Of a stretch of DNA of 64,000 bases, positions 5,943 through 27,897 are shown piece after piece. The stretch is from an uncultured Bacilli bacterium. GTDB taxonomy: Bacteria > Bacillota_I > Bacilli_A > RF39 > UBA660. Positions within the stretch are counted from its first letter, which is position 1; each line of letters starts with the position of its first letter. A program made the translations under genes and the position numbers. Under the pieces are notes generated by a model, which was given only the letters and a program-made list of their open reading frames with translations, was not told where the DNA came from and ran no database searches. Where the stretch lies: contig CAKPGL010000002.1 of NCBI GenBank assembly GCA_934154785.1, forward strand, positions 75,805 to 139,804. Reading direction: 5' to 3'.

Positions 5943-7604
5943 ATGAAAACGGATATTGAGATTAGTAATGAATGTGTGTTAGAAAATATAAATCTAATAG
6001 CGAATAAACTAAATATAGAAGATAAATATTTAGAATGTTTTGGAAAGTATAAGGCAAAAATAGATTTAAAAATATTTGATACCCTTTCTAATAAGGAAGA
6101 TGGTAAACTTATTTTAGTAACATCTACTAATCCTACACCATTTGGTGAAGGTAAAACAACACAAAGTATAGGCATAAATGATGCACTAAATAAATTAGGT
6201 AAAAATAGTATTGTTGTACTTAGAGAGCCTTCTTTAGGACCAGTATTTGGTATAAAGGGTGGAGCTACTGGTGGTGGCTATTCTCAAGTAGTTCCTATGG
6301 AAGATATTAATTTACATTTTACTGGTGATTTACATGCTATTGAAATGTGTAATAATTTACTTTGTGCTATTATTGATAATCATATATATCAAGGTAATGA
6401 ATTAAATTTTGATTTAAATAAAGTAACATTTCAAAGATGTGTTGATTTAAATGATAGAGCACTTCGTAATGTAACTATAAAATATGATAATAAAGGTTTA
6501 GAAAGAAATGATAAATATAATATTACAGTAGCAAGTGAAATTATGGCTATATTATGTTTATCAAAAAATATAGAAGATTTAAAACTTAGGTTGGGTAATA
6601 TTCTAGTGGGATTTAACACTAGTAATAAGCCTATCTACGCCAAAGAATTACACTGTGAAGATGCTCTTGCAATATTACTTAAGGATGCTATTAAACCTAA
6701 TTTAGTTCAAACTTTAGAACATAATCCAGCTCTTATTCATGGTGGACCTTTTGCCAATATAGCTCATGGGTGCAACTCTTTAATAGCGACACGTTTAGGT
6801 TTAAGACTTAGTGATTATGTTATCACTGAAGCTGGTTTTGGTTCTGACTTAGGGGCTGAAAAATTCTTAGATATAAAATGTGTTGTAGGAAATTTAAAGC
6901 CTAATGCTATAGTTATTAATGCTACTTTACGTAGTATTAAATATAATGGTGGTGTTTTTAAAGAAGATGTTAGTTTTGAAAATATAGAAGCATTAAGTAA
7001 GGGAATTGTTAATTTACAAAGACATATTGAAAACATGAGTAAATATACTAAGAATATTGTAGTATGTATTAATAAGTTTTCTAGTGATACAGAAAAAGAA
7101 ATATCTTTTGTAAAAGATTTTGTTAATAAATTAGGCTATAAAGCTATTACTTCTACATCGTTTATAGATGGAAGTAATGGAGCTTTAGAACTAGCTAAAG
7201 AAATAATAAAATTATGTGATAACAAGGTTGATTATAAACCTTTATATGACTATAATTTAAGTATAAAAGATAAAATAAATAAGATTGCTAAAGAAATATA
7301 TCATGCTAAAGAAGTTGTCTATAGTTGTGATGTAGAAGATAAAATAAAAGAACTAACAGAAATGGGTTTTGCTAGTTTACCAATTTGTATTGCTAAAACA
7401 CAATATTCTTTTACTGATAATCCTAAATTATTAGGTGCTCCTACAGATTTTAATATAACTATTACTGATATAAAACTATCTAGTGGAGCAGGATTTATTG
7501 TAGTTCTTTTAGGTAATATTATGACTATGCCAGGCTTATCTAAAAACTCTGCCTATTTAAATATGCATATTGATAACAATGGTAATATAAGTGGATTATA
7601 TTAA
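5943..7604 (+). CDS. fhs: Formate--tetrahydrofolate ligase.
   Basis: Signature PTPFGEGKTT, at the typical ~553-aa length. Confidence 0.9.
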   Translation: MKTDIEISNECVLENINLIANKLNIEDKYLECFGKYKAKIDLKIFDTLSNKEDGKLILVTSTNPTPFGEGKTTQSIGINDALNKLGKNSIVVLREPSLGPVFGIKGGATGGGYSQVVPMEDINLHFTGDLHAIEMCNNLLCAIIDNHIYQGNELNFDLNKVTFQRCVDLNDRALRNVTIKYDNKGLERNDKYNITVASEIMAILCLSKNIEDLKLRLGNILVGFNTSNKPIYAKELHCEDALAILLKDAIKPNLVQTLEHNPALIHGGPFANIAHGCNSLIATRLGLRLSDYVITEAGFGSDLGAEKFLDIKCVVGNLKPNAIVINATLRSIKYNGGVFKEDVSFENIEALSKGIVNLQRHIENMSKYTKNIVVCINKFSSDTEKEISFVKDFVNKLGYKAITSTSFIDGSNGALELAKEIIKLCDNKVDYKPLYDYNLSIKDKINKIAKEIYHAKEVVYSCDVEDKIKELTEMGFASLPICIAKTQYSFTDNPKLLGAPTDFNITITDIKLSSGAGFIVVLLGNIMTMPGLSKNSAYLNMHIDNNGNISGLY

Positions 7605-7659
7605 AAAATGAATAAAAAGTCTCCTTTTGGTTCAAGATGAACTAGAAAGGAGATTTTTT

Positions 7660-8436
7660 ATGGCACGTCATAAAGTAGAAATCTGTGGCGTGAATACTGC
7701 GAATATAAAAGTATTAAGTAGTGATGAAATGTTAGAATTGTTTAAAAGATATCAAAATGGAGATAAAACTGCTAAAAACGAACTAATAGAAGGTAATTTA
7801 AAACTAGTTTTATCAATATTAAGAAATTATAGTAATCGAACAGATAATATGGATGATCTATTTCAGATAGGTTGTGTTGGTTTAATTAAAGCAATTGATA
7901 ATTTTGATTTATCACATGAAGTAAAATTTTCTACCTATGCTGTTCCTATGATATTGGGGGAAGTTAAGAGATATTTAAGAGATAATAGTAGTATTAGGGT
8001 AGCGCGTAGTATTAAAGATATAGCGTATAAGTCATTACAGGCTAAAGAACAATTGACTAATGAATTAGGTAAAGAACCCACTATAGAAATGATTGCTAAA
8101 AAATTAGGCTTAACAGAATACGAAGTAACAAATGCTTTAGATTCTATGAAAGATACTATTAGTATGTTTGAACCTATATATAATGATGGTGGCGATACGA
8201 TTTATTTAGCCGATCAATTAGAAGATAAAAATAATAGTATGTATTCAATAGATGATAAAATGGCTTTAAGAGAAGCATTAAAAAGTTTGAATACCAAAGA
8301 ACGTGAAATTATTATAAAAAGATATATAATTGGTAAAACACAAATGGAATTAGCACGTGAATTTGGCATATCTCAGGCACAGATATCTAGAATTGAGAAA
8401 AATAGTTTAGATAAAGTAAAAAAACTCATTTTATAA
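7660..8436 (+). CDS. sigG: Sporulation sigma factor SigG (forespore late sigma). The start was moved to MARHK.
   Basis: Colinear with B. subtilis SigG: KVEICGV(D/N)T, DDLFQ(V/I)GC(I/V)GL(M/I)K(S/A)IDNFDLSH(N/E)VKFSTYAVPMI(I/L)GE(I/V)(R/K)RYLRDN, FEPIYNDGGD, GKTQME(V/L)A(E/R)E(I/F)GISQAQ(V/I)SR(L/I)EK. Confidence 0.85.
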   Translation: MARHKVEICGVNTANIKVLSSDEMLELFKRYQNGDKTAKNELIEGNLKLVLSILRNYSNRTDNMDDLFQIGCVGLIKAIDNFDLSHEVKFSTYAVPMILGEVKRYLRDNSSIRVARSIKDIAYKSLQAKEQLTNELGKEPTIEMIAKKLGLTEYEVTNALDSMKDTISMFEPIYNDGGDTIYLADQLEDKNNSMYSIDDKMALREALKSLNTKEREIIIKRYIIGKTQMELAREFGISQAQISRIEKNSLDKVKKLIL

Positions 8437-8515: not shown

Positions 8516-10669
8516 ATGCAGAAGACTAGAAATAAGACTTTATTGTTGCTTATCTTTTTAGTTGGTATGGTATTGATTCCAAATAGAGCTTTGGCAGAAA
8601 CATTACCAGACAAAATTGGAAACATTTATGAATTAAGGGATAATGAAAGCTTAAAAGGATATACACCATTACGAATAGTAGCTGGTGGTGTTGCTAATTT
8701 AGGACATTATTTGGGAACTGAAACTCAATATTTACCTTATAAAATATCTGCTAGTTCAATAACCGGTACTGGGAGAGATGCAACTGTTACAGGAATTAAC
8801 TATGCTGTTTACTGTACGTTCTTTGGTAAAAATTCTCCAGCACAGAATTCTTATGTATCTTATTGTGGCGATGTTATTAGTGGCTGTTCTGCAACCGCTA
8901 ATGAACAAAAAAATCAAATCCCAGCTTATTGTACAAAAAAAAGTGGTTGGGATGAAGGTACTAAAGCAGGAGTAGCATATATAATTAAACAAGCTGGTGG
9001 TCGTACGTTTGGAGGTGCTAGTCTAGGTAATTATTATAATGCCGAAAGTACAATTAACCAATTTTTGTATGCTGTGAGTGTTAATAAAGATATTTGTAAT
9101 ATCCAAAAGTGTAATGCTGATTCTACTGGTGGTACTAATAGTGACAATAAAATTGTTGATTATAATACCACTGATGTAAATACTGCTAAAGCACTTCGAG
9201 ATACTGTTAATGCATTTACAAATAAAGGTGCATTAACAATAAACGCACCAACAAGTAAAGAATTAACATATGATGATGAAGCAAATGTCTGGAAATCTTC
9301 AAGATTTTCAATTAGTAATTTAGATAAGTATCCTAGTAATAATCAAGAAATAACTGTTGTTTTAAAAGATGCAAATGGTAAAACTTATCCTGGATATGCC
9401 TATATAACTAATATAGGTAGTGAGGTTCAAGTTGGTGTATGTAATAAAAACAATGGTGATTATTGTAAAGATATAACAAACTTTAAAAAGCTGACTTCTG
9501 GAACTTACACTGTAGAGATCACTGTTAAAGGTACTTATTCTTATGATATTGCTGAAAATTATGATTGTGGTACTTTATTTCAAAGTATTACACCTGCAAT
9601 TACAGATACGGTAAATGTTAATGAAAAACAATCTATAACATTTAATTTAAAGATTGCTGATGAACTTGGTTCAATTAAAATTAAAAAAGTAGATGCTGAT
9701 ACTAATGAAGAAGTTACTGGAGCTACAATTACAGTTAGGGGTAAAGATAACGATTTTAATCAACCATTTACATTAACTAATAAAAGTACTATTACAATAA
9801 ACAATTTAAAGTATGGTACTTATGAAATAATTGAAACTAAAGCACCAAATGGTTATGAAAAAGATACAAGAACTTATGAAGTTGTTATATCAAAAGATCA
9901 TCTCTTAGAAGAGGTGGTAATTTCTAATAAAAGAGTTGAAGATAAGGTTGGAATATTTTCTATATTGAAAATTGATGAATCCGGTAATAAATTAGGTGGT
10001 TCAACTTTTGAATATTATTATGATGGCGCTGATAGTGTAACATTTGAAAATGTCACGAAGGATGGAGTAAGAATCACAGATGTTACTTTAAATAAAAGAA
10101 TTTGTTTAGAAGAAACTAAAGCACCAAATGGTTATAAATTAAATTCTAAAAAATTTTGTTTTAAAATAATTGACACTGGTGAAATTAAATTAGATGAAGA
10201 TTATGATTTTATTAAAATAACTAAAAATAAAACAATGTATGTACTAAATGTAATTAATTATCCAGTTGATAAATCTATTGTTAAAATAAAAAAAGTAGAT
10301 TCTAAGGATAATACAAAAGTTTTAGCTGGTGCTAAACTTCATATAATAGATGAGTCAGGTAAAGAAGTAGTTGAACCTTGGATTACAACAACTGAAGAAT
10401 TTGTTATTACAGATTTAAAGGCTGGTAAATATTATATTGAAGAATTAGACGCACCAGAAGGTTATACATTAAATAAAACAAAACAAGAATTTACAATAGA
10501 ATCTAATGAAACTCGCATAACTATAGAGTTTATTAATGAAAAACCTGTTAATGTTCCTAATACTTTGTCTAATATATCTAAATTAGTTATTTTATTAGCA
10601 GTAAGTGGAATATTAGTAGGAGCAATTCTAGTATACAAAAATAAATTTAGTGAGGATGGTATAAAATGA
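8516..10669 (+). CDS. Sortase-dependent pilin/adhesin with three CnaB-type domains and a non-canonical sorting signal VPNTLSN.
   Basis: Signal peptide; three pilin E-box-like motifs (YEIIETKAPNGY, ICLEETKAPNGY, YYIEELDAPEGY). The C-terminus is ...NVPNTLSN, then a hydrophobic TM, then a KNKFSEDGIK charged tail. Confidence 0.75.
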   Translation: MQKTRNKTLLLLIFLVGMVLIPNRALAETLPDKIGNIYELRDNESLKGYTPLRIVAGGVANLGHYLGTETQYLPYKISASSITGTGRDATVTGINYAVYCTFFGKNSPAQNSYVSYCGDVISGCSATANEQKNQIPAYCTKKSGWDEGTKAGVAYIIKQAGGRTFGGASLGNYYNAESTINQFLYAVSVNKDICNIQKCNADSTGGTNSDNKIVDYNTTDVNTAKALRDTVNAFTNKGALTINAPTSKELTYDDEANVWKSSRFSISNLDKYPSNNQEITVVLKDANGKTYPGYAYITNIGSEVQVGVCNKNNGDYCKDITNFKKLTSGTYTVEITVKGTYSYDIAENYDCGTLFQSITPAITDTVNVNEKQSITFNLKIADELGSIKIKKVDADTNEEVTGATITVRGKDNDFNQPFTLTNKSTITINNLKYGTYEIIETKAPNGYEKDTRTYEVVISKDHLLEEVVISNKRVEDKVGIFSILKIDESGNKLGGSTFEYYYDGADSVTFENVTKDGVRITDVTLNKRICLEETKAPNGYKLNSKKFCFKIIDTGEIKLDEDYDFIKITKNKTMYVLNVINYPVDKSIVKIKKVDSKDNTKVLAGAKLHIIDESGKEVVEPWITTTEEFVITDLKAGKYYIEELDAPEGYTLNKTKQEFTIESNETRITIEFINEKPVNVPNTLSNISKLVILLAVSGILVGAILVYKNKFSEDGIK

Positions 10670-12096
10670 AATTAAAGAAAATATTTATATTGTTAATACT
10701 ATTGATTCCAGCAATATTTGCTGGTGGTATAGTAAAAGCTGAGGCAATAACATTTGGTGTTTATGCTAAAAAAGTTGGTACTTCAAATAGTGAAAAAATT
10801 GCTGGAGTTGGATATGAAATATATCAAGACAGCTGTTCTAGTGGTACTAAATTATATAGTGGTACTACAATACAAGGTGATTTTACACGCCATAGTATAG
10901 AAAGTGGTACTACTATTTGTATTAAACCAACAGAAGTACCGTCGACAGATTATAAATTACCTGGCGAAGCAATTAAAACTGTTACTGGTAGTAATAGCAC
11001 TCATGGTATTATTCTAGAAGAAAACACTAATAAAACTAAAATTAGCTTTGCTTATGCAATTACAGATAAAACAGATGGTCATATGATTGATAGTGGAAAA
11101 ATCAGAATTAAACAAGGTGGCGTAAAAGATAACAAATGTACTGGTACAGATATTAAAATCTCAGAAGATGGTTACGGTTACACTTCGAGTACTCCTGTAC
11201 AAATTGGCCCATATGAGTATACAACTGCTCCTAGTAAGGTTTGCATTGAATTAGTTGAAGAGATAGCGGGTTATCAATATCCAGCTGCTCAAGAATTTAC
11301 AGTTGATAGTGATTTAGTTAATACTTACTTGGTTCTTGATAAGAAAAGTACAGATGAGCCTAGCCAAAAAACCAGTTATACAATTGGATTAAAAGCGAAA
11401 GATACAAGTAAGTATTTAAAAGGGAAAATTACTATTACAGATGGTACCGTAGAAAATGGAAGTTGTAGTGGAAATGATCTTGTTTCTAAATTTACAATTT
11501 TCTCCGCTTCAACTAAAACTACTGCAATGCCAAAAAGTACAACAGGTCATATTTGCATAGAAGTTAATAGTTTAGATAACACAAGTTATAAGATACCAGA
11601 ACCAAAAGAATTTACTTATGAAGATGATGGTACTTATGAAATTGAGGTAGAAAAAAAAGATGATGGTAGTACTGTCACTCATCCAACAATAAAGGTTGGA
11701 TTTAAATATAAGGACAATTATGTAAAAGGTATTCAATTTGCAATTTATAAAAAAATGGGTTCTGGTGATAAGTGTAGTACTATTCTGAGAGATAGGTTAA
11801 CAAGTATTAGTAAATTACAATCTTTAGAACTTAGTTCACTTGAAGAAATGCCGAATTCAGTTTGCATTGAGGTTGTTCAGAGTAACCTTGGCAATTATAG
11901 TGTTAAAGAGCATGCAGTGTATACCGTAAAGAATGGTGTTGTGGAAATAGAACTTGGTGATAAAGTAATATCTCCCGATACTATGTCAAATGTATCTATA
12001 ATAGTTATTTCGGCCGGATTAATTGTTCTAATTTTGGGTGGTTACCTGTTATATACAAATAAAATAAATAAGGAGGAAAATTCAACTGAGAATTAA
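10666..12096 (+). CDS. Pilus subunit-like surface protein with four Cys-pair repeat domains and the sorting signal SPDTMSN.
   Basis: Signal peptide; four ~100-aa repeats, each with an N-terminal C(S/T)G and a ...CIE(V/L) motif. The C-terminus is SPDTMSN, then TM, then KINKEEN. Confidence 0.6.
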   Translation: MKLKKIFILLILLIPAIFAGGIVKAEAITFGVYAKKVGTSNSEKIAGVGYEIYQDSCSSGTKLYSGTTIQGDFTRHSIESGTTICIKPTEVPSTDYKLPGEAIKTVTGSNSTHGIILEENTNKTKISFAYAITDKTDGHMIDSGKIRIKQGGVKDNKCTGTDIKISEDGYGYTSSTPVQIGPYEYTTAPSKVCIELVEEIAGYQYPAAQEFTVDSDLVNTYLVLDKKSTDEPSQKTSYTIGLKAKDTSKYLKGKITITDGTVENGSCSGNDLVSKFTIFSASTKTTAMPKSTTGHICIEVNSLDNTSYKIPEPKEFTYEDDGTYEIEVEKKDDGSTVTHPTIKVGFKYKDNYVKGIQFAIYKKMGSGDKCSTILRDRLTSISKLQSLELSSLEEMPNSVCIEVVQSNLGNYSVKEHAVYTVKNGVVEIELGDKVISPDTMSNVSIIVISAGLIVLILGGYLLYTNKINKEENSTEN

Positions 12097-12110
12097 GAAT
12101 AGGTGAGAAG

Positions 12111-13733
12111 ATGAAAAAAAATAGATTATTTAATATATTAAAATTTTCTACATTAACATTGTTTACATTAGCTGCTGTGTTTCCTACAGTGATAAAGGCA
12201 GAAGATACAGATCCTGATGCTATTAAAATAGTAGAATATAGGGCTTGTACTGATTCGGGTGCTGGCTGGAAAGACCCAGAAAAATCAGCCGGATTAACTA
12301 TTGGTGCTAGTTCTAATTGCTTTTTGGCTCGAGGTTCTTCTTATAAATTAACAGCGTTATATAAAGACGGAACTTTGAATGATACTACGCCAACTGTTGC
12401 ACTTAGGTTAAATGTTAACTTACTTTCTCCGGCACAAGATAGATTAGATATTGTCAATAAAAAATTAGTTACTGATGATACTACTTGTAAAAAAATTGCC
12501 AATTATTATGGAAATGATGAGGGAATATATGCTGGACTAGGTCAGCTTTTAAAAGGTGTTGATGAAAGGCGTAAAGAGAAAAGTGATAATCACGTATATG
12601 TTACAACAGATGAACAGTATTTTGCTTCTTTGGCGATGAGTCAATTTATTTCTGAAAAATTAAACAAGAGTAGTTATGCATTAAAAGGCGAAAGTGTTTC
12701 AAATGACGCAATTGCAAGTCGTTATAATGAGTTAGAGGAAGGATATATTAAAGCTACTACTGCAGTACCAGCACAAATAAATAATAAAACTATTAAAACA
12801 TTTAAAATGCAATATATGATTGATGATAATAAAAAGGATTATTTATACAAATCTAGTTTTATTACTTTTAAAGATGCCACGCTATTAGATAAATATACTT
12901 CAAATAAAGGACAAGTTGAGTTATTTAACTTTACTTTAAAGAATAAAGATACCGGTGATTTATATGATGATTATGTTTATGCAGCAATTCAGAATAATAA
13001 ATCAACTAGAGCTCATGATTTAGTATATCAATTTGGTATTTGTGATAGTCTAGACTTTCAAGTAAAAGATTATGCAAATTGTAAGGCATTAAAGGGTAAA
13101 AAGTTACCTGCAGGTAATTACGAATTAGTTGTATCAGTTAATGATGCTATAACATATTCAAAAGTTAAAACTATTTATTCTTGTACATCTTCTAGTTCTA
13201 CTACAGGATATACACCTATTGTATTAAGTAATGGTAATTATTCAACTGCTAAAAATTCAATTAAATATGATTTAACAAGTGAATTTACAGTAGAATCAAA
13301 TCCAACACCTGTGGTTCCAGATGATAAACCAATAGAAAAAATTGGTACTATTAAGGTTAGTATTGTTGACAAAAATAAGAAATTATTAACTGGTGTTAAA
13401 TTTCAAATTTGTGAAGATAGAGATTGTAATTCAATAAAAAATACTGCTACTTCAACAAATGAATCTTATATTGCACCTAATATACCATTTGGTAAGTATT
13501 ATATTGTGGTTACTGAAGTACCTAAAGGATATGTTGTTCCTACTACAGTTGAAGTAGCTGAATTAAGTACTTCTAACACAGTTGCAGAAAAAACTATAGT
13601 AATAGAAGCTACTACTAATGTACCTGATACTTTATCTAATATATCTAAATTATTCTTGATTTGCGGTATAGTTGGTATAATAGCGGGAACTTATTTAGTG
13701 TATAGTAATGCTAAGAAGCAAGAAGAAGTATAA
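12111..13733 (+). CDS. Pilin/adhesin with a C-terminal CnaB domain and the sorting signal VPDTLSN.
   Basis: Signal peptide; CnaB-like block IGTIKVSIVDKNKKLLTGVKF...FGKYYIVVTEVPKGY. The C-terminus is VPDTLSN, then TM, then NAKKQEEV. Confidence 0.7.
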   Translation: MKKNRLFNILKFSTLTLFTLAAVFPTVIKAEDTDPDAIKIVEYRACTDSGAGWKDPEKSAGLTIGASSNCFLARGSSYKLTALYKDGTLNDTTPTVALRLNVNLLSPAQDRLDIVNKKLVTDDTTCKKIANYYGNDEGIYAGLGQLLKGVDERRKEKSDNHVYVTTDEQYFASLAMSQFISEKLNKSSYALKGESVSNDAIASRYNELEEGYIKATTAVPAQINNKTIKTFKMQYMIDDNKKDYLYKSSFITFKDATLLDKYTSNKGQVELFNFTLKNKDTGDLYDDYVYAAIQNNKSTRAHDLVYQFGICDSLDFQVKDYANCKALKGKKLPAGNYELVVSVNDAITYSKVKTIYSCTSSSSTTGYTPIVLSNGNYSTAKNSIKYDLTSEFTVESNPTPVVPDDKPIEKIGTIKVSIVDKNKKLLTGVKFQICEDRDCNSIKNTATSTNESYIAPNIPFGKYYIVVTEVPKGYVVPTTVEVAELSTSNTVAEKTIVIEATTNVPDTLSNISKLFLICGIVGIIAGTYLVYSNAKKQEEV

Positions 13734-14397
13734 TTTATCATTTGTTTTTGGTATTTTATTTATAATTTGTGGATTAGTTATTATACTTTACAATTATTTT
13801 GAAACCAAAAAAATTGAGAGTTTTGATAGTATGAGTATTGCTTTATTGGAATCTGAAACTCCTAGTAATATTGATGATGATTCTAATTTACCAAATGATA
13901 TAGAAGAACCTACAACTGATGATGAACCAAATCAACCTGATAATCCAGTTGTAGAGCGACCTAAGCCACAACCTAAACCAGTTGATTATACAAAGTATTA
14001 TGTAGGTACTCTTGAAATACCTAAGATAAATTTGAAAAAGGGATTTCTAAATATTGATTCACCATATAATAATGTTGATAGGAATGTTACCGTAATCAAG
14101 TCATCTGATTATCCAGATGTTACAAATGGCAATTTTATATTAGCGGCTCATACTGGTAGTAGTAGTATAAGTTTCTTTACTAAACTACACGATTTATCAA
14201 TTGGTGATTTAGCATATATTAATTACAAAGAAAAAAAGTATACTTATCAATTAGTAAATATATATACTCAGCCTAAAGTTGGTTGGATTAATATTTATCG
14301 TGATACAAGTAAAACTACTTTAACGTTGGTTACTTGTACTAAAAATACACAAGAAACGCAAACAATATTTATATTAGAATTAATAAATGTAGAATAA
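13708..14397 (+). CDS. Sortase (transpeptidase), presumably the pilin-specific sortase for this locus.
   Basis: N-terminal TM, catalytic His in LAAHTG, catalytic Cys in TLVTCT, and downstream Arg (IYRD). Overlaps the upstream pilin gene by 26 nt. Confidence 0.75.
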   Translation: MLRSKKKYNLSFVFGILFIICGLVIILYNYFETKKIESFDSMSIALLESETPSNIDDDSNLPNDIEEPTTDDEPNQPDNPVVERPKPQPKPVDYTKYYVGTLEIPKINLKKGFLNIDSPYNNVDRNVTVIKSSDYPDVTNGNFILAAHTGSSSISFFTKLHDLSIGDLAYINYKEKKYTYQLVNIYTQPKVGWINIYRDTSKTTLTLVTCTKNTQETQTIFILELINVE

Positions 14398-18922: not shown

Positions 18923-18988
18923 TATAGATTAAAAAGAGTTTACTTAGGTAAGCTCTTTAATTTGCTAATAAAATAAATTATTGATATA

Positions 18989-20698
18989 ATGTTTAAGGTG
19001 ATTTACTTGGAAAAATTAGATTCTATTTTTGAATATTATCAAGGTACTAAAGCATATTCCTTATTTTTATTAAACCAATTTGGCGATAATCAAAATGGCA
19101 CTTATATATTAGATAAAAACAACTACAATGCTGCTAGAGTAGCCTTTATTTCTATAATATTACTTGATATTAAAGAAGATATATTAGAAGACTTAGGAAA
19201 TTCTAATTTTAAATCTAATATATTTAATGATGAACTTATCAAATCAGTTAATTTACTTGCTACTAAAGATGGTGATAACTACGTAATAAACAATTACAGA
19301 TTTAAAGATGCTCCTACTTTAGTAGCGGTTCTTAGAAATAAACTTGCACATGGGAATTTTACTTTAGATACTGAACATTCTAGAGTTATAATTGATATAA
19401 ATGGACAAAACGTTATTCTTAATATAGATAAACTTGCCTTATTTGTTGCTTCATCTTTAAAAAACACTTATTTAAAAATGAAAAAAGGTAATTATACTAA
19501 AAATATTTTAATATCAAACAAAATATATGCTAATAGAAAATTACCTCTTTCTAAAGAAAAACTGATAGAGTTAATTACTACCTTTAATAAAATTAGTTTT
19601 ACTTTAGAAAATAAAGTAGGTGGTGATATACCTAAATATATTTTAGAGGAAGCTGATGCCTCAATTTATGCTTATAATAAAACTGGAGATATAAAATATA
19701 TAAATCATTTTAATAATAGTTATGAAGATTATAAATTAAACTCTACTAGAGAAAAAATAAAATATGATAAACAAAGTTTTGATTATATTGTGGATAATGT
19801 ATTGAAACAAACAGAAAAAAATAATTTATCTTATGATGCACAAGTAGAAGTATTAAAGCCTTTACTTGATAAGAAATTTTTAAAAAAGGAAAAAATCGAT
19901 GAAAGAATGGGTGCATTTAAAAATTTAATTTTATTAGATGCAGCTTATAAAATAAATAGTATTGATCAGAATAAAATAGGTAAATATATATCTACATATT
20001 ATACACCTGATACTTATTTTAGTATTAATAACGATTCTTTAGCGGCTTCCGCTTTAGCGATGTTTCAGGCTCTATTTTCATATTCTAATGATGATTTATA
20101 TAATGATGGTTTAGAATATGAAAATAATTATAATAGTGGTTTAGATTATTCCAAATTAGATTTATCAAAAATAAAAATTAGTTATATAGAACCTGATAAT
20201 AAAATTATAAGTATTCTAAATGAAAAGAAAGTAGCTAGAGAAAAAGGTATATTAGAATTACAAGGTTCTATAAATAAAAAAATGACAAATTTAAATAATG
20301 TTAAAGCAAAGGGTAATATTACCGCTATTGAAAATATAGAAAAATCTTTAATTGAGAGTAACGAAAATTTATCAAATCTTCAAAATGACTTAAATAATAT
20401 AAATCAAAAAATAAGTAATATTACAACGTATCAACTTAATAATAAATTACATTTAACAAATAAGGCTATAATTACTTGTATAAGAAATTCTATTGCTCAC
20501 GGCCATTATAAATTTGTATATTCTAATGATTACAGTGATGTTAAAATAGTTTTTAATGATATATACGAAGGTAAAATAACATTTAGTGCTGAAGTAAATA
20601 TAATTGATTTTATAGAATTGTTGTATGAAAATGATCATGTAATTATAGATTTTGTTGAAAATAATATAGAAAGAACTAGACAAGGTAAATCTATCTAG
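18989..20698 (+). CDS. Protein of unknown function with two HEPN-like Rx4HG motifs (LRNKLAHGNF, IRNSIAHGHYKF) flanking a coiled-coil segment; predicted RNase.
   Basis: Two R-N-x-x-A-H-G motifs at residues ~115 and ~510. Heptad-like N/L/I/K-rich segment at ~400-480. The start is uncertain: ATG 18989 or the TTG after the SD AAGGTGA. Confidence 0.45.
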   Translation: MFKVIYLEKLDSIFEYYQGTKAYSLFLLNQFGDNQNGTYILDKNNYNAARVAFISIILLDIKEDILEDLGNSNFKSNIFNDELIKSVNLLATKDGDNYVINNYRFKDAPTLVAVLRNKLAHGNFTLDTEHSRVIIDINGQNVILNIDKLALFVASSLKNTYLKMKKGNYTKNILISNKIYANRKLPLSKEKLIELITTFNKISFTLENKVGGDIPKYILEEADASIYAYNKTGDIKYINHFNNSYEDYKLNSTREKIKYDKQSFDYIVDNVLKQTEKNNLSYDAQVEVLKPLLDKKFLKKEKIDERMGAFKNLILLDAAYKINSIDQNKIGKYISTYYTPDTYFSINNDSLAASALAMFQALFSYSNDDLYNDGLEYENNYNSGLDYSKLDLSKIKISYIEPDNKIISILNEKKVAREKGILELQGSINKKMTNLNNVKAKGNITAIENIEKSLIESNENLSNLQNDLNNINQKISNITTYQLNNKLHLTNKAIITCIRNSIAHGHYKFVYSNDYSDVKIVFNDIYEGKITFSAEVNIIDFIELLYENDHVIIDFVENNIERTRQGKSI

Positions 20699-20723
20699 AC
20701 TAAAATTCAGGGGGGATATAAAA

Positions 20724-21719
20724 ATGGAAGGGACTAATAATTTATTTTCACAATTTAGTGAATTAGACAAAAAAGAATTAATTTCTTTTTTAGATAATTT
20801 TTATTTACATTATCGTAATAATTTGAATTTTAATGATACTACTTTAACTTTTGGTATTGAAATAGAATTTGAAAAAATTTTATTAGAGGAAGTAGAGCAA
20901 TTATTAATAAATAGTAATTTAAAAAACTGGTTAACCAAAAAAGAACGTTCTATAATTACGGGTGGTGAAATAAATAGTACTATATTAAATGATAATCAAA
21001 CAAATTGGTTAGGAATTAAAAAAGTTTGTTCTATTTTAAAAGAAAACAACGCTAAAATCAGTGAAAATTGTGGTGGACATGTACATTTTGGTAGTAATAT
21101 TTTAGGTGATAATTATAATAGCTGGCTAACATTTATAAAATGTATTATTGCTTTTGAAAAAGTTTTATTTAGATTTGGTTATGGTGAAGAAGTAAAAGAA
21201 AGACATTCTGTTAGAAAATTTGCTTATCCTGTTTCTTATTTATTAAAAGAAATACTTTATTCTGAAAATATAGACTTTAATAATATAAATACTGAAAAAC
21301 TATTAGATATTATAAAAGATAGAACTAGTAAAAGAAGTTCTGTTAGTTTTCAAAAAATTTGTATTAAAAATTTAGATAATATAAAAAATAATACAATAGA
21401 ATTTAGATTTCCTAATGGTACAATAGAAGAAATTATTTGGCAGAACAATATAAATACTTTAGGTAAACTTTTATTAGCGGTTAAAAATGATAAAATAGAT
21501 ATTGATGTTATTGATTTTTTACTTAAAAATATTCAAAAAGAAAGTAACATTAATATTTTACTAATGGACTATGGTTCTATTCATTTAAATACAGCTTTGT
21601 TATTTTGTGATATGATTTTTGATAATGATTTAGATAAATTATATTTTCTTCGTCAGTATATAAAAAATTCTTATAAAGATACTTATCAAGAACGTCAAAA
21701 AAAATTTATTATTAATTAA
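20724..21719 (+). CDS. Glutamine-synthetase-fold carboxylate-amine ligase (amidoligase)-like protein.
   Basis: N-terminal GxExEF-type strand (TFGIEIEFE) and metal-binding CGGHVHFGS, reminiscent of GS GSGMHxHxS and the Amidoligase_2/GCS2 families. Confidence 0.4.
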   Translation: MEGTNNLFSQFSELDKKELISFLDNFYLHYRNNLNFNDTTLTFGIEIEFEKILLEEVEQLLINSNLKNWLTKKERSIITGGEINSTILNDNQTNWLGIKKVCSILKENNAKISENCGGHVHFGSNILGDNYNSWLTFIKCIIAFEKVLFRFGYGEEVKERHSVRKFAYPVSYLLKEILYSENIDFNNINTEKLLDIIKDRTSKRSSVSFQKICIKNLDNIKNNTIEFRFPNGTIEEIIWQNNINTLGKLLLAVKNDKIDIDVIDFLLKNIQKESNINILLMDYGSIHLNTALLFCDMIFDNDLDKLYFLRQYIKNSYKDTYQERQKKFIIN

Positions 21720-21769
21720 AATGTAAGAATTATTTATTTATAGTATTCCATACTAATTATGGTGATAGT

Positions 21770-22204
21770 ATGAAGTATGTATTAAATATAATGATTCTTT
21801 TTATTTGTGTTTTTTTACTTTTAATTATAGATAATGATTATATAAGTGTTCCAGTTGTATCATTAGATAGTGATTATTATCAAATGTATGATATATATGC
21901 TGATAACTTAACTACTAAAAACTTTACTAAATACTTTAGTGATACATCTAATTTTATTGCGGTATATCCTGATATAAATTTAATTTATAAAGAAAAACTA
22001 GGTAATATATATTTTGAGTGTAAAAATAAATTTAACTTAGATGCTTTTATTTCTTATTATAAAAAAGTACTTGAAAAAAATAATTATAAAAATGATTTAG
22101 TAAATATTGATTATTATGGCGTTTCTATAAAAAAGATTATGGTATACGCTAATAAAGAAGAATTAGCACAAATTTTAAATAATTGTACAATTTGTTTTAT
22201 TTAA
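21770..22204 (+). CDS. Small protein with an N-terminal signal/TM helix; unknown.
   Basis: The ORF has SD TGGTGA; N-terminus MKYVLNIMILFICVFLLLII. Confidence 0.4.
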   Translation: MKYVLNIMILFICVFLLLIIDNDYISVPVVSLDSDYYQMYDIYADNLTTKNFTKYFSDTSNFIAVYPDINLIYKEKLGNIYFECKNKFNLDAFISYYKKVLEKNNYKNDLVNIDYYGVSIKKIMVYANKEELAQILNNCTICFI

Positions 22205-22246
22205 ACCTAGCTAGTATGTTATAATTACTATGTCAGGGGTGATTTA

Positions 22247-23086
22247 ATGATCTGTTATGGTATTAATGATATGTATCGTAAAGAAATATATAAATGTGAT
22301 GAAAAACAAATTTTATTATTTTTTGATGAACTAGATAGTGCCACTAAAAATATTTATTTACGTATAATGGTAACAGATGGTTTACAGGTTTTAGAAAGAA
22401 GAAGACAATATAATGAAAGTGATCAATATTCAAAAAGGTTATATAAAATTCTAAGTAATTCTGACTTTGAGCATATTAAGTCTGTTTTAGAAGATAACTA
22501 TATTTTATTTCAAGTATTATTTGTAAATGCTAAAGGATTTTATAAAATGCCTATCGTAGATAGATGTCTTTTAGTTGGAGAAAGAGAAAATAAAATCCTA
22601 AATTATAAATTACTATCTTTAAACCCTTTTTATCTAGTAGATGTTTGTGTATACACTATTCAAAAAGATATTGATAGTATTTACTACTATTATAATGATT
22701 ATCAAAATAAGTTAGGTAGTAAACAGCTTAAAAGTTTTTATCAGTTGGTCTTAGTAATGATGGAAAAACTAAAAGAGGAGAATACTAATTTATATAATAA
22801 AAACTTTTTAGAATTTTTAAAAAATTTTTATGTTGGAAATAAATTTTTACAATCTATAGATGAAATTTCTTCTTTAGAAACAAAACTTTATCATGATATG
22901 CTAGAAAAAGAGGAATTAGATTATGTAATAAGTCTTCTTGAAAGTACACCAGAAGATCTTATGAAAGTATTAGCGATTTCTTTTGCGTATCACTCAGATA
23001 TGGCTGGCACTAAAGAGGAGAAAAACTTTATAAATGAGAATGTTAATTCTGATATGATAAAAAAATTACAACTTAATAATAATTAA
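22247..23086 (+). CDS. Hypothetical alpha-helical protein (279 aa).
   Basis: The ORF has a strong SD AGGGGTGA and a -10-like TATAAT upstream. No motif recognised. Confidence 0.4.
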   Translation: MICYGINDMYRKEIYKCDEKQILLFFDELDSATKNIYLRIMVTDGLQVLERRRQYNESDQYSKRLYKILSNSDFEHIKSVLEDNYILFQVLFVNAKGFYKMPIVDRCLLVGERENKILNYKLLSLNPFYLVDVCVYTIQKDIDSIYYYYNDYQNKLGSKQLKSFYQLVLVMMEKLKEENTNLYNKNFLEFLKNFYVGNKFLQSIDEISSLETKLYHDMLEKEELDYVISLLESTPEDLMKVLAISFAYHSDMAGTKEEKNFINENVNSDMIKKLQLNNN

Positions 23087-23191
23087 AGAACTATTAGGAA
23101 ATTAACGAATATTTTCTTAATAGTTTTTTTAATAATGATTTGCTTTTTTTAAAATAATATTATAAAATATCCCTTGTTTTGGGGGATGATT

Positions 23192-26100
23192 ATGAAATCT
23201 ATCAGTGAGTTTGATTTAAAGGTTTTAGGTAACACTTTTATTCCAGATATTTTTAAAATTAAGATTATTAATAAACTTAGTATTGAAGACATTATATTTC
23301 ATCAAAAAAAATTTTGTCCTAATCTTGGATTGTTAGATGGGAATTATCTATTAAAATTAGGATTAAAATATCGTAAAAGAGAAATTCTTGAATATTTTAA
23401 GTCCTTTGATGTAGATGATACGGTAAATTTTTCTGTTTTAAAAAGTATACTTATAATAGATGAACATTTAAATAATTATATAATAAAGGTACTTGACATT
23501 TCTGTTATTGATAAACTTATTTCCGGTAATATAAATAGTGATGAAACTTTTAAAAGAATATGTAGGTTACGTAAGAATGATGTTTATGCATTAATTAATA
23601 CCGCTATTAAAGATAATAGATATCAAGATTATGTTAGTTATTGTACACCAGATAGATTAAAGGAGTATATTATAAAAAAAGTTGATATTAACTATCTAAT
23701 ATTGGATTTGACATCCACTAATTCTACTTTAACCAAAACTATTTTAAAGTATAGAAAAAAAGATATTGTTGAATATGTTAATTTAAACTCCAATAACATT
23801 CCTGAGTTAGAAAATTTGTTAAAAATGGATTTGCCTAAAGAAGTTTATAAAATGCTATTAGAGAAATTTCCTATTGATAATAGAATGATTTCTTATATAT
23901 TTTTACATTGTTCTACTGATTTAAAAGATTTATTATTTTTACTTTATCCAGATAAAGTATATGCTTGGGTGGATGAATTTCTAATTGGTGATAAACACTT
24001 TGATATAATTCAACTTAGATATAATAAATTAACATCTTATATTGTAAATAAGCTAAACCTTGAACAATTAGATGATGTAATAAAAGGTAATTTAACGATT
24101 TATTATAGTGACTTTATTAATGAATTATTTAAAGTTAGAAAAGAAGATATCATTAGTATAATAACAGAAAATGTTTCTTTAGATAATTCAAAAATAATAG
24201 ATTATTTATCTTTAAAACTACCTGAAAATATATTAAAGTCTATTATGTACTGCATTGATGTTAATGAAAACATATTAAATATAATTTTAAAAAATGGTAA
24301 TTCTAGTGTTATAGAAAATGTATTTAAAATATATAAAAATGAATTATTACTTATAATTAATAAAAATTCTAAAACTGATAGAATAGCATTCTTAGATAAG
24401 TATTTAAGACAATATGCTTATCCAATAACTTTACAAATAGAATTATTGAAAGACTTAACCGATGAAGAGATAATTTATATTATGTCACAAGGCGTTTTTG
24501 GATATGCGTTAAAGGATAAAATATATGAATTATATAAAGATAGAATTAATAAGATATACAGTAATTTATTATTAAGTGATATAGAAAAAGCAACTACAAT
24601 TTTTAAAAATTCCGCTATAACTGATTTTAGATCGGATATAATTAATAATTATGATTTTAAATACTTACGTTATTTTTTAGATGAAATGAATGAAACGGAA
24701 AAAGAAAAACTATATAAAAAATTCCCTAGGGAACTTAAAGAAATGCTAAGAGCTGAATATTCTAATGATTTATTAGAATTTATAAAAAGAAGGGTTTTAG
24801 ACTGCAATAGTGTAGTTTTAACTTTAAGCCTGAAGTTACTTACTTATGATGATATTATTTTTGCTTTAAAAAATAATATTGATTTTAAATATTACTATAA
24901 TGAAAAATTAAATAAATTAATGGAATCAGCTATAAAAAGTAAAGCTAATGATATAAAGAATTCTCCTTATGATGAATGTTTAATCTTTTTGAAGTCTCTA
25001 AGAGAAAAATTTGATGATTTATTTATTGTCTTTTTAAATAGCATAGAACTTGATGATGATTTCTTACATAAATTATTTATTGAAAGAGGTCTATCTGATA
25101 AACAAAAAGATATTTTATTTAAGATGAAAAGCAATGATATTTTAAGAATTGTTAAAAATAAATTATTAAATGATGAAGTAGATCCTATTGAATATATTCA
25201 AAAGGGTACCCCAGATGATGTGCTAGAACTTGCACTATCTTATATTGAAAAAGATAGAGTAATAAGTTTATTAAATGATCCCAATTTTATTAACAGAAAA
25301 AGTATTGGAAAAAGCTTTGCCTTAAAATTAGCCATAATAGTAAATGTTAATAAAGAGAATGTTCAAGAAGTAGAAAATCTTGTCAAATATTATTCTAAAG
25401 ATATATATGAATTTATTAATAATTATGAAAAAATATATTCTTTTTTAAAACTTAGTAGTATAGATGTTTCAAAGTTTTGGCAATATTCCTTAAATACAAG
25501 TTATAACTTTATAAGCGATATAGTTAAAATATACGAAGATGATTTAGATATGTTTTTACGTGTTAAGGATATATTATTTACATATGTTTATGATGATAAC
25601 AATAAATATTCTTATCAAAGTTTTGTAAATATTATAAAGAATTATAGTAGATATAAAAAACTATGTATATCACTTACTGAAGTAGAAAATTTAGGCGCAA
25701 TTAACTTTAATAATATTAAATTATTATTTAATCAAGATAAACTTATACCAAATATAAATATGTATAATGACTGTGGTAACATTATTAATGTGATAAAGGA
25801 TGAATATATGACAATGTTAAAAAAATGTTCATCAATTGATGAATATAAAGATACTTTATTACAACTATTATTTAATCACAATATTAAATCAGTTGAAGAA
25901 ATGCTTAATAATTATGGTAAAGTTAGTGATTTATTACAACTTAAATATTATAATTTACATAATAAAGAAGTATTAGATAAGATAGACTGTGTTATACCTT
26001 ATACTGAATTAATGGAAGAAATATTATATTGTGATGATATTAATGCTTTAAAAAGAACAATTGATGATACTATTAATAATATAAATTCTATTTTAGTAGA

Positions 26101-27487
26101 TTTTAATTATACTAATTACGATGATTTGATGCGCGAATTATACGCTATAGAAATGGATATGAACTTATCTAAGGTTGGTTATAATGTTGATGTAGATAGT
26201 GTAAAATTAGAAGAAAAATCTAAATTATATGGAGTAGATATATATGATTTTAGAGATAAGCAATATGCTTTATTAGCACATGTATTAAGTGATTCAGAAA
26301 ATATAGATGATTTAATACAGGGTAATTCTAGTGGAACATTTAATTTCATATCACTTTCCGCAATAAGTTATAGAATGCAATCATATTATTATGGTGCTAA
26401 AAATATGATATTTGGTTATGATGAAATGCCTAATTCTAATTTTGTTTGTAGTTCCGATAGCAACATGGGAACAAATTATTCAATAACAAAAAATTCAATT
26501 GAGATGACCCCTATTAATAGAAAACAAAGAGGCTTATTAGAAGTTAGTGATACTGATAGTAATTCTGAAATATTATCTTTAAGAGAAGGTATGAAACCTA
26601 AGTATATTATTTGTCCTGGTAGACTACCTTCTTCAGAGGAACTTAGATGTGCTTTAAAATATAATTTAAAAATTGTTTTAACTCAAGAAATTAATGAAAC
26701 TATTCTTTCTCCTAAACCAATTAATAAACTAGTAGAACCTAAACCTAAAGTATCAAAGGAATATTTAATAGAGTTTAGAAATAAAGTAATTAAAACTGGT
26801 AATAAAAATAAGGTAGCGGTTATAACAGATGCTCATGGTATATTAGAACCTACTTTAGCGGTACTGGAAGATATACGTAAAAAAGGAATAACTAAAATAT
26901 ATTCCTTAGGAGATAATATAGGTACTGGTTCTAATCCTAGTGAAGTGTTAGATATATTAAACCACTATGGAGTAAAAAGTATTAAAGGCAATCATGAATT
27001 GTATCTAATAGATGGGGTAGATGAGTATAAAAAGCATTTAATTGAAACTGGTGCGTATGAAGAGGAAACAATTAACACAAGTTGGACGCGTGACAATTTA
27101 ACAGCAGAACAAGTAGTAGATATATCTAAATATGATAATTATGTAGAATTAGATGTTGCGGGCAACAAGGTATTATTATGCCATTACTTATATGACTATA
27201 ATGAAAACAAACCATTATATGATATAACTAAATATGATTTAGTTATTCAAGGTCATAAACATTTTCAAGCACAATCTGGAAAAATTGTAACATTAAAAGC
27301 AATAGGTATTGGTAATAAAAGTAATGATGATATAGGTAACGCTACTTATATGATTATTGATTTAAATGATAAAGAACATCCATATGAAATAATAAATGTT
27401 CCTTATGCCTATAAAAACTCTATTAATGATGAAAATGTTTCTTCTAATAATTGTAAACAAAAAATAATGAATTGGATTGGTAAATAA
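23192..27487 (+). CDS. Giant (1432 aa) protein: ~1150-aa N/K/I-rich alpha-helical N-terminal region plus a C-terminal calcineurin-like metallophosphoesterase domain.
   Basis: The C-terminal ~260 aa carry an intact MPP motif set: ITDAHG (DxH), LGDNIGTG (GDxxxxG), GNHE, and GHKH. No Walker A anywhere. The start was moved to the ATG 8 nt after the SD GGGGGA. Confidence 0.6.
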   Translation: MKSISEFDLKVLGNTFIPDIFKIKIINKLSIEDIIFHQKKFCPNLGLLDGNYLLKLGLKYRKREILEYFKSFDVDDTVNFSVLKSILIIDEHLNNYIIKVLDISVIDKLISGNINSDETFKRICRLRKNDVYALINTAIKDNRYQDYVSYCTPDRLKEYIIKKVDINYLILDLTSTNSTLTKTILKYRKKDIVEYVNLNSNNIPELENLLKMDLPKEVYKMLLEKFPIDNRMISYIFLHCSTDLKDLLFLLYPDKVYAWVDEFLIGDKHFDIIQLRYNKLTSYIVNKLNLEQLDDVIKGNLTIYYSDFINELFKVRKEDIISIITENVSLDNSKIIDYLSLKLPENILKSIMYCIDVNENILNIILKNGNSSVIENVFKIYKNELLLIINKNSKTDRIAFLDKYLRQYAYPITLQIELLKDLTDEEIIYIMSQGVFGYALKDKIYELYKDRINKIYSNLLLSDIEKATTIFKNSAITDFRSDIINNYDFKYLRYFLDEMNETEKEKLYKKFPRELKEMLRAEYSNDLLEFIKRRVLDCNSVVLTLSLKLLTYDDIIFALKNNIDFKYYYNEKLNKLMESAIKSKANDIKNSPYDECLIFLKSLREKFDDLFIVFLNSIELDDDFLHKLFIERGLSDKQKDILFKMKSNDILRIVKNKLLNDEVDPIEYIQKGTPDDVLELALSYIEKDRVISLLNDPNFINRKSIGKSFALKLAIIVNVNKENVQEVENLVKYYSKDIYEFINNYEKIYSFLKLSSIDVSKFWQYSLNTSYNFISDIVKIYEDDLDMFLRVKDILFTYVYDDNNKYSYQSFVNIIKNYSRYKKLCISLTEVENLGAINFNNIKLLFNQDKLIPNINMYNDCGNIINVIKDEYMTMLKKCSSIDEYKDTLLQLLFNHNIKSVEEMLNNYGKVSDLLQLKYYNLHNKEVLDKIDCVIPYTELMEEILYCDDINALKRTIDDTINNINSILVDFNYTNYDDLMRELYAIEMDMNLSKVGYNVDVDSVKLEEKSKLYGVDIYDFRDKQYALLAHVLSDSENIDDLIQGNSSGTFNFISLSAISYRMQSYYYGAKNMIFGYDEMPNSNFVCSSDSNMGTNYSITKNSIEMTPINRKQRGLLEVSDTDSNSEILSLREGMKPKYIICPGRLPSSEELRCALKYNLKIVLTQEINETILSPKPINKLVEPKPKVSKEYLIEFRNKVIKTGNKNKVAVITDAHGILEPTLAVLEDIRKKGITKIYSLGDNIGTGSNPSEVLDILNHYGVKSIKGNHELYLIDGVDEYKKHLIETGAYEEETINTSWTRDNLTAEQVVDISKYDNYVELDVAGNKVLLCHYLYDYNENKPLYDITKYDLVIQGHKHFQAQSGKIVTLKAIGIGNKSNDDIGNATYMIIDLNDKEHPYEIINVPYAYKNSINDENVSSNNCKQKIMNWIGK

Positions 27488-27494
27488 TATATAA

Positions 27495-27540
27495 AAAGAA
27501 TCTACCAAGAATTAATCATTTAATTCCTGACAGATTCTTT
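27495..27540. terminator. Bidirectional nested hairpin (AAAGAATCT...AGATTCTTT enclosing GAATTAAT-cat-TTAATTC) between the convergent giant gene and the HIT gene.
   Basis: Inverted repeats read directly from the sequence. It overlaps the HIT stop codon. Confidence 0.45.
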
Positions 27541-27897
27541 TAGTATGTTATAAATGTCTTCTACTTTTTTAATTTCTTGTTTATCTTTATAAAATGGTTT
27601 TAAATGTAAATGAAAGTGTTTTACTTCTTGAATACAACCATTATTTTGAATTAAGGTTAAACCATCTATATGAAGTTTATCTTCAAGTAGTTTTTTCATT
27701 TTTTGTGCTATTTTAAATATGTGGTTCATAGTTGCTTCATCCATATCACTTAAATTTACAATGTGTTTTTTAGGTATAATTAATGTATGACCATTTGTAT
27801 CAGGGTTAATATCTAAAAATACTTTTACGATATCATCTTCATAAATAGTATAAGAAGGAATACTTCCAGAAATAATTTTACAAAAAATACAATCCAT
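27520..27897 (-). CDS. HIT-family (histidine triad) nucleotide hydrolase.
   Basis: Histidine-triad motif HFHLHL and the N-terminal CIFCKI motif. Confidence 0.8.
   Translation of the reverse strand: MDCIFCKIISGSIPSYTIYEDDIVKVFLDINPDTNGHTLIIPKKHIVNLSDMDEATMNHIFKIAQKMKKLLEDKLHIDGLTLIQNNGCIQEVKHFHLHLKPFYKDKQEIKKVEDIYNILKESVRN

Follow-up and report, generated by a model that had tools for sequence, protein, structure and literature searches.

Does a gene for an amidoligase-like enzyme that adjoins a HEPN-like gene, with a phosphoesterase encoded further downstream, form a system with these neighbors, or is its function tied to other partners? The question was raised by the gene at positions 20724–21719 of a 64,000-nucleotide stretch of DNA from an uncultured Bacilli bacterium (contig CAKPGL010000002.1 of GenBank assembly GCA_934154785.1, positions 75,805–139,804), the whole of which is hereafter called the window. 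An earlier interpretation made from the letters alone (the sequence-only reading) had described a glutamine synthetase (GS)-fold amidoligase-like enzyme in a conflict locus and had suggested that its pairing with a HEPN ribonuclease (RNase) and a phosphoesterase constitutes a modification-based regulatory or effector step. The enzyme assignment was upheld by the analyses reported below and the pairing was not. On balance, and with modest confidence, we favor the view that the gene encodes a competent ligase of the Amidoligase_2 family, probably gamma-glutamyl specific, which in the family at large acts close to the membrane and which is present here as an orphan copy.

Enzyme Class, Fold, and Conserved Residues

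The open reading frame (ORF), its translation start, and the motifs on which the following analyses rely are located in the window as follows.

20724–21719, plus strand: amidoligase gene (Amidoligase_2, GS-fold carboxylate-amine ligase), ATG start, 331 residues, assigned from the ORF, PF12224, AlphaFold2, and Foldseek
20709–20715, plus strand: ribosome-binding site AGGGGGG, 8 nt 5′ of the amidoligase ATG, read from the sequence and strong
20847–20873, plus strand: strand motif TFGIEIEFE (residues 42–50), with E46 and E48 as putative counterparts of the GS ExE metal ligands
20961–20978, plus strand: motif GGEINS (residues 80–85), with invariant E82
21069–21095, plus strand: motif CGGHVHFGS (residues 116–124), with H119 and H121 as putative counterparts of the GS HxH site
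21393–21407, plus strand: motif TIEFR (residues 224–228), with E226 and R228 as the putative GS ExR metal and ATP-phosphate site
21438–21449, plus strand: motif WQNN (residues 239–242), conserved in relatives
21609–21659, plus strand: C-terminal helical extension DMIFDNDLDKLYFLRQY (residues 296–312), past the end of the Pfam model and helical in the AlphaFold2 model

The sequence-only reading had been staked on a significant profile match to the GS/amidoligase superfamily, and such a match was found: PF12224 (Amidoligase_2) was the single Pfam-A match of the protein (E = 3.1e-12), scoring 47.3 bits, where the gathering score is 22, and aligning residues 71–246 with profile positions 66–241 of 245. 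Searches against NCBIfam, PADLOC, and PHROGs returned nothing significant (best PHROGs E = 0.067), and no solved relative was detected by sequence search of the PDB, either with the single protein or with a profile of the family.

Residue conservation was assessed in an alignment of 36 diverse members and then by counts in 88 full-length relatives. The invariant positions of the alignment were F43-G44-x-E46-x-E48, G80-x-E82, H119-x-H121, E145, T224-x-E226-x-R228, and Q240-N241, together with a C-terminal block outside the Pfam model, D296...D304-K305-x-x-F308-L309-x-x-Y312. Within the enlarged set, G44, E46, E82, H119, H121, E145, T224, E226, R228, Q240, N241, and N242 were conserved in 88/88 sequences, as were D296, K305, F308, L309, Q311, and Y312 of the C-terminal block; F43, E48, G80, and D304 were each retained in 83–87 of the 88 (E48 in 87 and F43 in 85). 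Both of the motifs first noticed in the ORF, TFGIEIEFE and CGGHVHFGS, thus fall on residues that vary little or not at all among the relatives, and the window protein carries every residue that is invariant in the family. In GS-like ligases the ExE/HxH/ExR pattern binds two metals and the phosphates of ATP, and the ExE, E, HxH, and ExR residues of the window protein probably correspond to these ligands.

The fold agreed with this assignment. The AlphaFold2 model, computed with the family alignment as input, reached a predicted local distance difference test score (pLDDT) of 93.4 and a predicted template modeling (pTM) score of 0.93, and all its significant Foldseek matches in the PDB were GS, YbdK/GCS2 proteins (1r8g, 1tt4), or glutamate-cysteine ligase (GCL). 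The best of them was the GS structure 8fbp (E = 7e-6, probability 1.0, template modeling (TM) score ~0.4). Against the viral models of BFVD, the best matches were phage proteins named "Amidoligase enzyme" (E = 3.7e-9, TM score 0.61). The resemblance of the motifs to those of amidoligases goes far beyond chance, and the gene product very probably belongs to the GS-fold Amidoligase_2 enzyme class. As an enzyme class the protein offers no novelty: its relatives already bear the name "amidoligase family protein" in NCBI.

Recurrent Partners of the Family

Neighbor statistics were obtained by calling ORFs in 90 loci, clustering the encoded proteins, and tabulating the neighbors, with subsequent reduction to non-redundant loci. 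A protein family of ~281 residues, here termed family B, for which no match was found in Pfam, NCBIfam, or PADLOC, was encoded directly 5′ of the amidoligase gene, in the same orientation, in 56 of the 76 non-redundant loci, with a median gap of 5 bp and often in two copies. Furthermore, the two families are joined in a continuous ORF of 609 residues, with family B at the N-terminus and the amidoligase at the C-terminus, in two independent metagenome-assembled genomes (MAGs) of one lineage, those of Candidatus Onthousia faecavium and a second MAG (L015 1928–3757 and L016 7137–8966); the gene for a gamma-glutamyl cyclotransferase follows. This fusion is a Rosetta-stone link between family B and the amidoligases. 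Separate family B genes can be seen, for example, at 6290–7993 of locus L005 and at 7196–7990 of locus L007.

According to its AlphaFold2 model (pLDDT 82), family B begins with a long N-terminal helix that includes the first hydrophobic segment and is followed by a β-rich middle domain, after which the C-terminal part contains a clear transmembrane helix and further helices. Two hydrophobic helices hence flank a β-rich domain of ~120 residues, and the helical tails are charged. No significant fold match was found for it in the PDB. The possibility that family B is a divergent paralog of the ligase was discarded, given an hhalign probability of 0.05 and a link that exists only through the fused proteins. 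We know of no earlier report of a two-transmembrane partner for the PF12224 family, and both the partnership and the fusion appear to be undescribed so far.

The second partner is the cyclotransferase itself, a 155-residue AIG2/GGACT protein (PF06094, E = 1.3e-9) encoded directly downstream of the ligase in 12 of 73 loci. The sequence-only reading had suggested looking for gamma-glutamyl cyclotransferase partners elsewhere; co-occurrence was thereby found in the family, and within the 64-kb window the GGACT hidden Markov model (HMM) retrieved nothing. The family B HMM likewise retrieved nothing there (best E = 0.049). As neither family B nor GGACT is encoded within these 64 kb, we call the window copy an orphan. 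In a rough neighbor-joining tree, its clade was among several lineages without partners that are interspersed with the family B-associated ones.

The absence of both usual partners could also mean that the window copy is a relic, decaying or functionless after family B and GGACT disappeared, and its GC content of 0.204 is the lowest of the neighborhood except for that of p144, the gene that follows it. Nevertheless, the ORF is intact with every invariant residue kept, the orthologs at 95–98 %, 82 %, and 55 % identity to the window amidoligase are all full length, which indicates purifying selection, and partner-less copies persist in several other clades. We therefore regard decay as highly improbable, and an enzyme that is still competent is the reading retained here.

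Other genes were met near members of the family. Tandem metallophosphoesterases (cluster 3) lie upstream of the ligase in six loci, and as these are confined to a single syntenic clade the association counts as one event; the cluster was rejected as kin of the phosphoesterase domain encoded in the window, where its HMM had no match. A tyrosine recombinase gene is located close upstream of the ligase in 9–10 loci. No tRNA gene adjoins these integrase-adjacent copies, and an interpretation as tRNA-inserted islands was accordingly dropped. At L047, L068, L070, and L077, a tyrosine recombinase and a 380-residue protein precede the pair of family B and amidoligase genes. A weak similarity to the Thoeris inhibitor Tad4, scoring 23.2 bits where the cut-off is 25, was seen at the C-terminus of the 380-residue protein.

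Distribution of the Amidoligase and a Possible Metabolic Role

A total of 177 homologs of ~330 residues were retrieved among 5.8 billion proteins, nearly all of them with a precomputed PF12224 match, and where they were named at all NCBI listed them as "amidoligase family protein [Bacilli bacterium]". When one GTDB genome per species was scanned by pattern, relatives were detected in at least 281 species-level genomes. Among the best 80 loci, the record titles pointed nearly always to uncultured gut Bacilli, "Tenericutes", or Firmicutes MAGs, with five contigs titled Muribaculaceae; Mycoplasma sp. CAG:776, Clostridium sp. CAG:433/451, and Candidatus Onthousia are examples of hosts. Two relatives were found on contigs of ~1.2 Mb, one of which is labeled circular.

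No relative was encountered in IMG/VR contigs (0 hits), and tblastn gave no match to the amidoligase among 50,697 phage records; on these two results, a phage origin was set aside. Among annotated plasmid and phage records, the nearest protein by sequence was a 468-residue "amidoligase family protein" of the pCW3-type conjugative plasmids of Clostridium perfringens, with 28 % identity to the window protein over residues 24–318, part of the C-terminal block included. The pCW3 gene (L099, NC_010937.1 41334–42740) adjoins dcm and a DUF4417 gene in a plasmid region conserved in 101 records, and its type of amidoligase possesses an additional N-terminal region of ~160 residues without known function.

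This distribution bears on a second explanation, in which the enzyme is a soluble small-molecule gamma-glutamyl-amine or gamma-glutamyl-amino-acid synthetase comparable to PuuA or GCL and serves housekeeping metabolism. GGACT would then be the degradative arm of a small gamma-glutamyl cycle, and family B would be incidental or regulatory. The structural neighbors of the protein (GS, YbdK, GCL) are all small-molecule ligases, and the pairing of ligase and GGACT mirrors the logic of GCL and its cyclotransferase GGCT, which is established biochemistry of the gamma-glutamyl cycle. The family is also chromosomal, usually with a single copy per locus, among genes for aminoacyl-tRNA synthetases, Lon, and WhiA in genomes of ~1.2 Mb, and the absence of relatives from IMG/VR contigs and phage records fits such a role as well. 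Against it, tight coupling and even fusion to a two-transmembrane protein without transporter-like architecture would be unexpected for a soluble metabolic enzyme, the closest annotated relatives reside on conjugative plasmids (by sequence) and phages (by fold), where a housekeeping function is unlikely, and the GC content of the amidoligase gene lies below that of its neighbors in 74 % of the loci. Altogether, we consider the metabolic explanation possible but rather unlikely, and a membrane-proximal ligase remains the preferred reading of the family.

The Genomic Neighborhood in the Window

The proposal of a modification-based system concerned the genes on both sides of the amidoligase, which are listed here together with the associated sites.

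18962–18990, plus strand: promoter-like TTGCTA-17-TATAAT with an upstream TG, a candidate promoter for the 569-residue protein gene and the amidoligase gene, from a consensus scan only
18989–20698, plus strand: gene for a 569-residue protein with two Rx4H (HEPN-like) motifs, ending 25 bp before the amidoligase start and variable among strains
21770–22204, plus strand: p144, a lineage-specific single-pass membrane protein of 144 residues with one N-terminal hydrophobic segment
22247–23086, plus strand: p279, a lineage-specific protein of 279 residues with no hydrophobic (transmembrane) segment and no Pfam match
23174–27487, plus strand: p1437, a protein of 1437 residues with a C-terminal calcineurin-like phosphoesterase domain at residues 1213–1397 (PF12850, PF00149, Metallophos)
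27494–27541, no strand assigned: long hairpin between the convergent p1437 and HIT genes, terminator-like and called on the minus strand

The Rx4H motifs of the 569-residue protein are RNKLAH (residues 116–121) and RNSIAH (residues 499–504). They form a near-identical RNxxAHG pair ~380 residues apart with a coiled-coil-like stretch between them, an arrangement that would be tandem-HEPN-like. The gene adjoining the amidoligase does encode two HEPN-like motifs. Neither the whole protein nor its halves matched any Pfam or HEPN profile, there was no sequence match in the PDB, and the sole profile support came from one ortholog with a PF18736 (pEK499_p136) annotation that is precomputed and faint. 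No Rfam match and no notable tandem repeat were found near the locus, hence no CRISPR array lies beside the double-Rx4H protein. The phosphoesterase that had been noticed nearby is indeed present as the Metallophos domain of p1437, whose closest solved relative is the lambda Ser/Thr phosphatase 1g5b (E = 5e-5), with PrpE/ApaH-like enzymes also related. The first ~1200 residues of p1437 have no family match, and the protein is confined to the species-level lineage of the window. For p144 only 10 homologs were retrieved, and p279 had 15 cluster representatives among 1.84 billion.

The total number of matches in the promoter-like scan was not above chance. The hairpin at 27494–27541 is the sole strong terminator-like site past position 18989. 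Between these, the block 18989–27487, located 5′ of the convergent HIT gene, exhibits a GC content of 0.223 versus 0.26–0.28 in its flanks. Its content varies among related genomes, with the 569-residue protein gene and the giant protein present or absent and with a Fic-like gene in L097. Nearly all genes of the window are encoded on the plus strand, and for that reason the common orientation of the neighbors says little here; in a nearly one-stranded genome, shared orientation is no evidence of a system.

Further upstream, at 8516–14397, a sortase gene comes after two large genes for SpaA-type pilins, as judged by synteny with the annotated loci L001 and L090. The host is therefore a walled, piliated, small-genome gut bacterium of the Bacillus class and not a wall-less mollicute.

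Does the Amidoligase Form a System with Its Neighbors?

The most direct evidence came from related strains. The loci L001–L003, with an amidoligase 82 % identical to that of the window, are syntenic with it on both flanks, sharing the pilin/sortase, ApbE, NusG_II, and FMN_bind genes upstream and p144, p279, p1437, HIT, and SUF downstream, and in them the amidoligase gene directly follows FMN_bind with no 569-residue protein gene in between. By blastn, the DNA of both flanks is ~94 % identical, and in place of the window segment 19046–20687, the body of the 569-residue protein gene, there are ~47 bp. Of this gene, the initial ~57 bp and the final ~35 bp are kept along with the promoter-like sequence, and because these gene ends and the flanks remain, L001–L003 are to be regarded as carrying an internal deletion that spared the amidoligase. 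In L001, the promoter-like sequence stands ~170 bp 5′ of the amidoligase, and the ribosome-binding site is preserved as GGGGGG.

A counterpart of the 569-residue protein gene, encoding 563 residues, is carried by L090–L094, where the amidoligase is 95–96 % identical to that of the window, and the gene is restricted to strains in which the amidoligase reaches at least 95 % identity to it. Outside the species of the window, a HEPN partner was found in none of the 76 non-redundant loci of the family (0/76). The giant protein p1437 occurs in the window, L001–L003, and L090–L092 and is absent in L010, whose amidoligase, a 55 % identical ortholog, follows UDG and GNAT genes and is still accompanied by p144 and p279. 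These last two genes were rejected as obligate partners, since both occur without the amidoligase: a p144-like and p279-like pair is found behind TMEM164/NAGPA genes in L095, L097 and L098 each have a solitary p144-like gene next to HIT, and p144-like genes without amidoligase are found across L095–L098. Neither are p144 and p279 a disguised family B or a disguised ligase (family A), with hhalign probabilities of 0.2–0.5. The defense models of PADLOC-DB 2.0 gave no match among the five window proteins, nor with family B, the fusion of both families, or GGACT.

We conclude that the pairing of the HEPN-like and phosphoesterase genes with the amidoligase is a local, strain-variable accident and no conserved system, so that neither the modification-based step nor the reading as a conflict locus is supported, in view of the deletion in L001–L003, the lack of p1437 in L010, the 0/76 loci, and the missing PADLOC match. 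The block, which looks like a hotspot of variation, is better viewed as a changeable set of lineage-specific genes in front of HIT–SUF than as a conserved system. The amidoligase is probably cotranscribed with the upstream 569-residue protein gene, on which it is not functionally dependent.

A conflict or defense module, with the amidoligase modifying the double-Rx4H (HEPN-like) RNase in concert with the downstream phosphoesterase protein, would nonetheless account for the gap of 25 bp between the two genes and the promoter-like site they have in common, as well as for the low GC and the variable content of the block. A strain that lost the HEPN-like gene and kept the ligase also represents the direction of loss that is tolerated in toxin–antitoxin pairs, and enzymatic antitoxins of HEPN toxins exist, as in AMPylation by MNT proteins. 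This module is opposed by the conservation of the ligase family in at least 281 species without a HEPN neighbor, and by a pairing that is limited to one species-level lineage and polymorphic even there. No PADLOC model matched, p1437 is missing from L010, the HEPN status of the neighbor is unconfirmed by any profile on the window copy, and co-orientation weighs little where nearly all genes share a strand. We judge it very unlikely.

Equally little credence is given to a more restricted version, in which the ligase was recruited in this strain as a regulator of the cotranscribed double-Rx4H protein and switches the RNase off or on by adding an amino acid such as glutamate. If true, this regulation would amount to a new form, based on a ligase, of the enzyme–antitoxin logic known from HEPN–MNT, and the sister strain in which only the RNase gene was deleted would represent a tolerated loss of toxin. 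A likelier and separate novelty is that the amidoligase family, family B, and GGACT could constitute an undescribed membrane-tethered system of reversible gamma-glutamylation in gut Bacilli.

Proposed Mechanism and Significance

Starting from the ORF, the family membership, the fold, the residue conservation, and the neighborhood statistics given above, we infer a chemistry, a gamma-glutamyl specificity, and a membrane-proximal target as follows. By analogy with GS, GCL, YbdK, PuuA, and PafA, the product would be a cytoplasmic, minimal GS-fold enzyme that uses ATP and divalent metals, presumably held together with the phosphates by E46, E48, E82, H119, H121, E226, and R228, to convert a carboxylate into an acyl-phosphate; attack by an amine would then yield the amide. 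For the acyl donor, the gamma-carboxylate of glutamate is the most probable candidate, and for the product bond a gamma-glutamyl-amine, because the relatives repeatedly precede GGACT, which would undo such a bond by cleaving the gamma-glutamyl-amine to 5-oxoproline and the free amine. In about three quarters of the related genomes, the ligase is translationally coupled to family B; given this coupling and the fusion, the site of action of the family is probably the cytoplasmic side of the membrane, with family B, or something that family B presents or binds, as the target. The orphan copy of the window may work by itself or together with partners encoded at other sites.

Several points weigh against this scheme. 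A literature search found no biochemically characterized member of Amidoligase_2, the mentions of PF12224 proteins being annotations or citations of the 2009 prediction, and for that reason donor, acceptor, and ligase activity are extrapolated from the superfamily. GGACT accompanies only ~16 % of the loci, and family B, having no recognizable fold or family, says nothing on the substrate. The partner-less enzyme of the window could moreover differ in role from its family B-associated relatives, or its partners could lie elsewhere in the genome, and the spacing of 25 bp to the 569-residue protein gene would permit cotranscription, from which some functional coupling could follow in this strain.

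Amidoligase_2 is a large family with members in phages, plasmids, and firmicutes; its chemistry has been predicted since 2009, and no experimental test of it was found in the literature. The chromosomal subfamily of small-genome gut Bacilli, with family B and at times GGACT, offers a defined minimal system of two or three genes for finding out what an Amidoligase_2 enzyme acts on. The partnership with family B is the most useful lead from this work, even though it lies outside the window.

Comparison with Known Systems

The window protein is no ortholog of GS, GCS2, or PafA and no member of a catalogued defense system, and it resembles each of several known systems in part. With GS of types I and III it shares the best structural matches in the PDB (8fbp, E = 7e-6; 3o6x) and a pattern of putative metal and ATP ligands; unlike them, it lacks the N-terminal β-grasp domain, gives a TM score of only ~0.4, and exhibits no sign of a dodecamer. 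YbdK/GCS2 (1r8g, 1tt4) and GCL have in common with it the minimal, single-domain GS-like fold of ~330–370 residues (Foldseek probability 1.0) and presumably the acyl-phosphate chemistry on a glutamate carboxylate. They differ in gene context, with ~13 % identity, TM scores of 0.34–0.39, and no match at the sequence level, and the window protein has no match to the Pfam model of GCS2.

The Pup ligase PafA and the depupylase Dop belong to the same superfamily and provide a precedent for a gamma-glutamyl-lysine isopeptide bond on proteins with a dedicated reversing enzyme. The window gene, in contrast, is accompanied by no Pup-like gene or proteasome context and exhibits no detectable sequence similarity to them, so that a protein-tagging role for this amidoligase would be only an analogy. 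The HEPN–MNT toxin–antitoxin systems are similar in that an Rx4H-motif gene directly adjoins the gene of a modifying enzyme. Here, however, a GS-fold ligase takes the place of the nucleotidyltransferase as modifier, the pairing lacks conservation, no profile confirms a HEPN domain in the window copy, and no defense or toxin–antitoxin model matched.

The closest relationship is that to Amidoligase_2 as a whole, for which gene neighborhoods with an AIG2/GGACT cyclotransferase in firmicutes or a GATase-II-like peptidase in proteobacteria are described; such a neighbor is a feature of context on which membership does not depend. PF12224 was reportedly defined by computation by Iyer, Abhiman, Burroughs, and Aravind in 2009 (Mol Biosyst 5:1636) as a "putative amidoligase enzyme" of phages, plasmids, and firmicutes. 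The window copy departs from this picture in being chromosomal in a small-genome gut Bacilli bacterium, with no relative in IMG/VR or the phage records, and in lacking GGACT and GATase-II partners locally. It nevertheless conforms to the family in scoring above the profile threshold, in the motif set FGxExE, GGE, GHxH, and ExR, in the fold of the phage amidoligases (TM score 0.61), in the 28 % identity to the pCW3 protein, and in having relatives with an AIG2/GGACT neighbor. What distinguishes its subfamily within Amidoligase_2 is the near-invariant C-terminal helix region DNxLDKxYFLRQY and, usually, the two-transmembrane partner.

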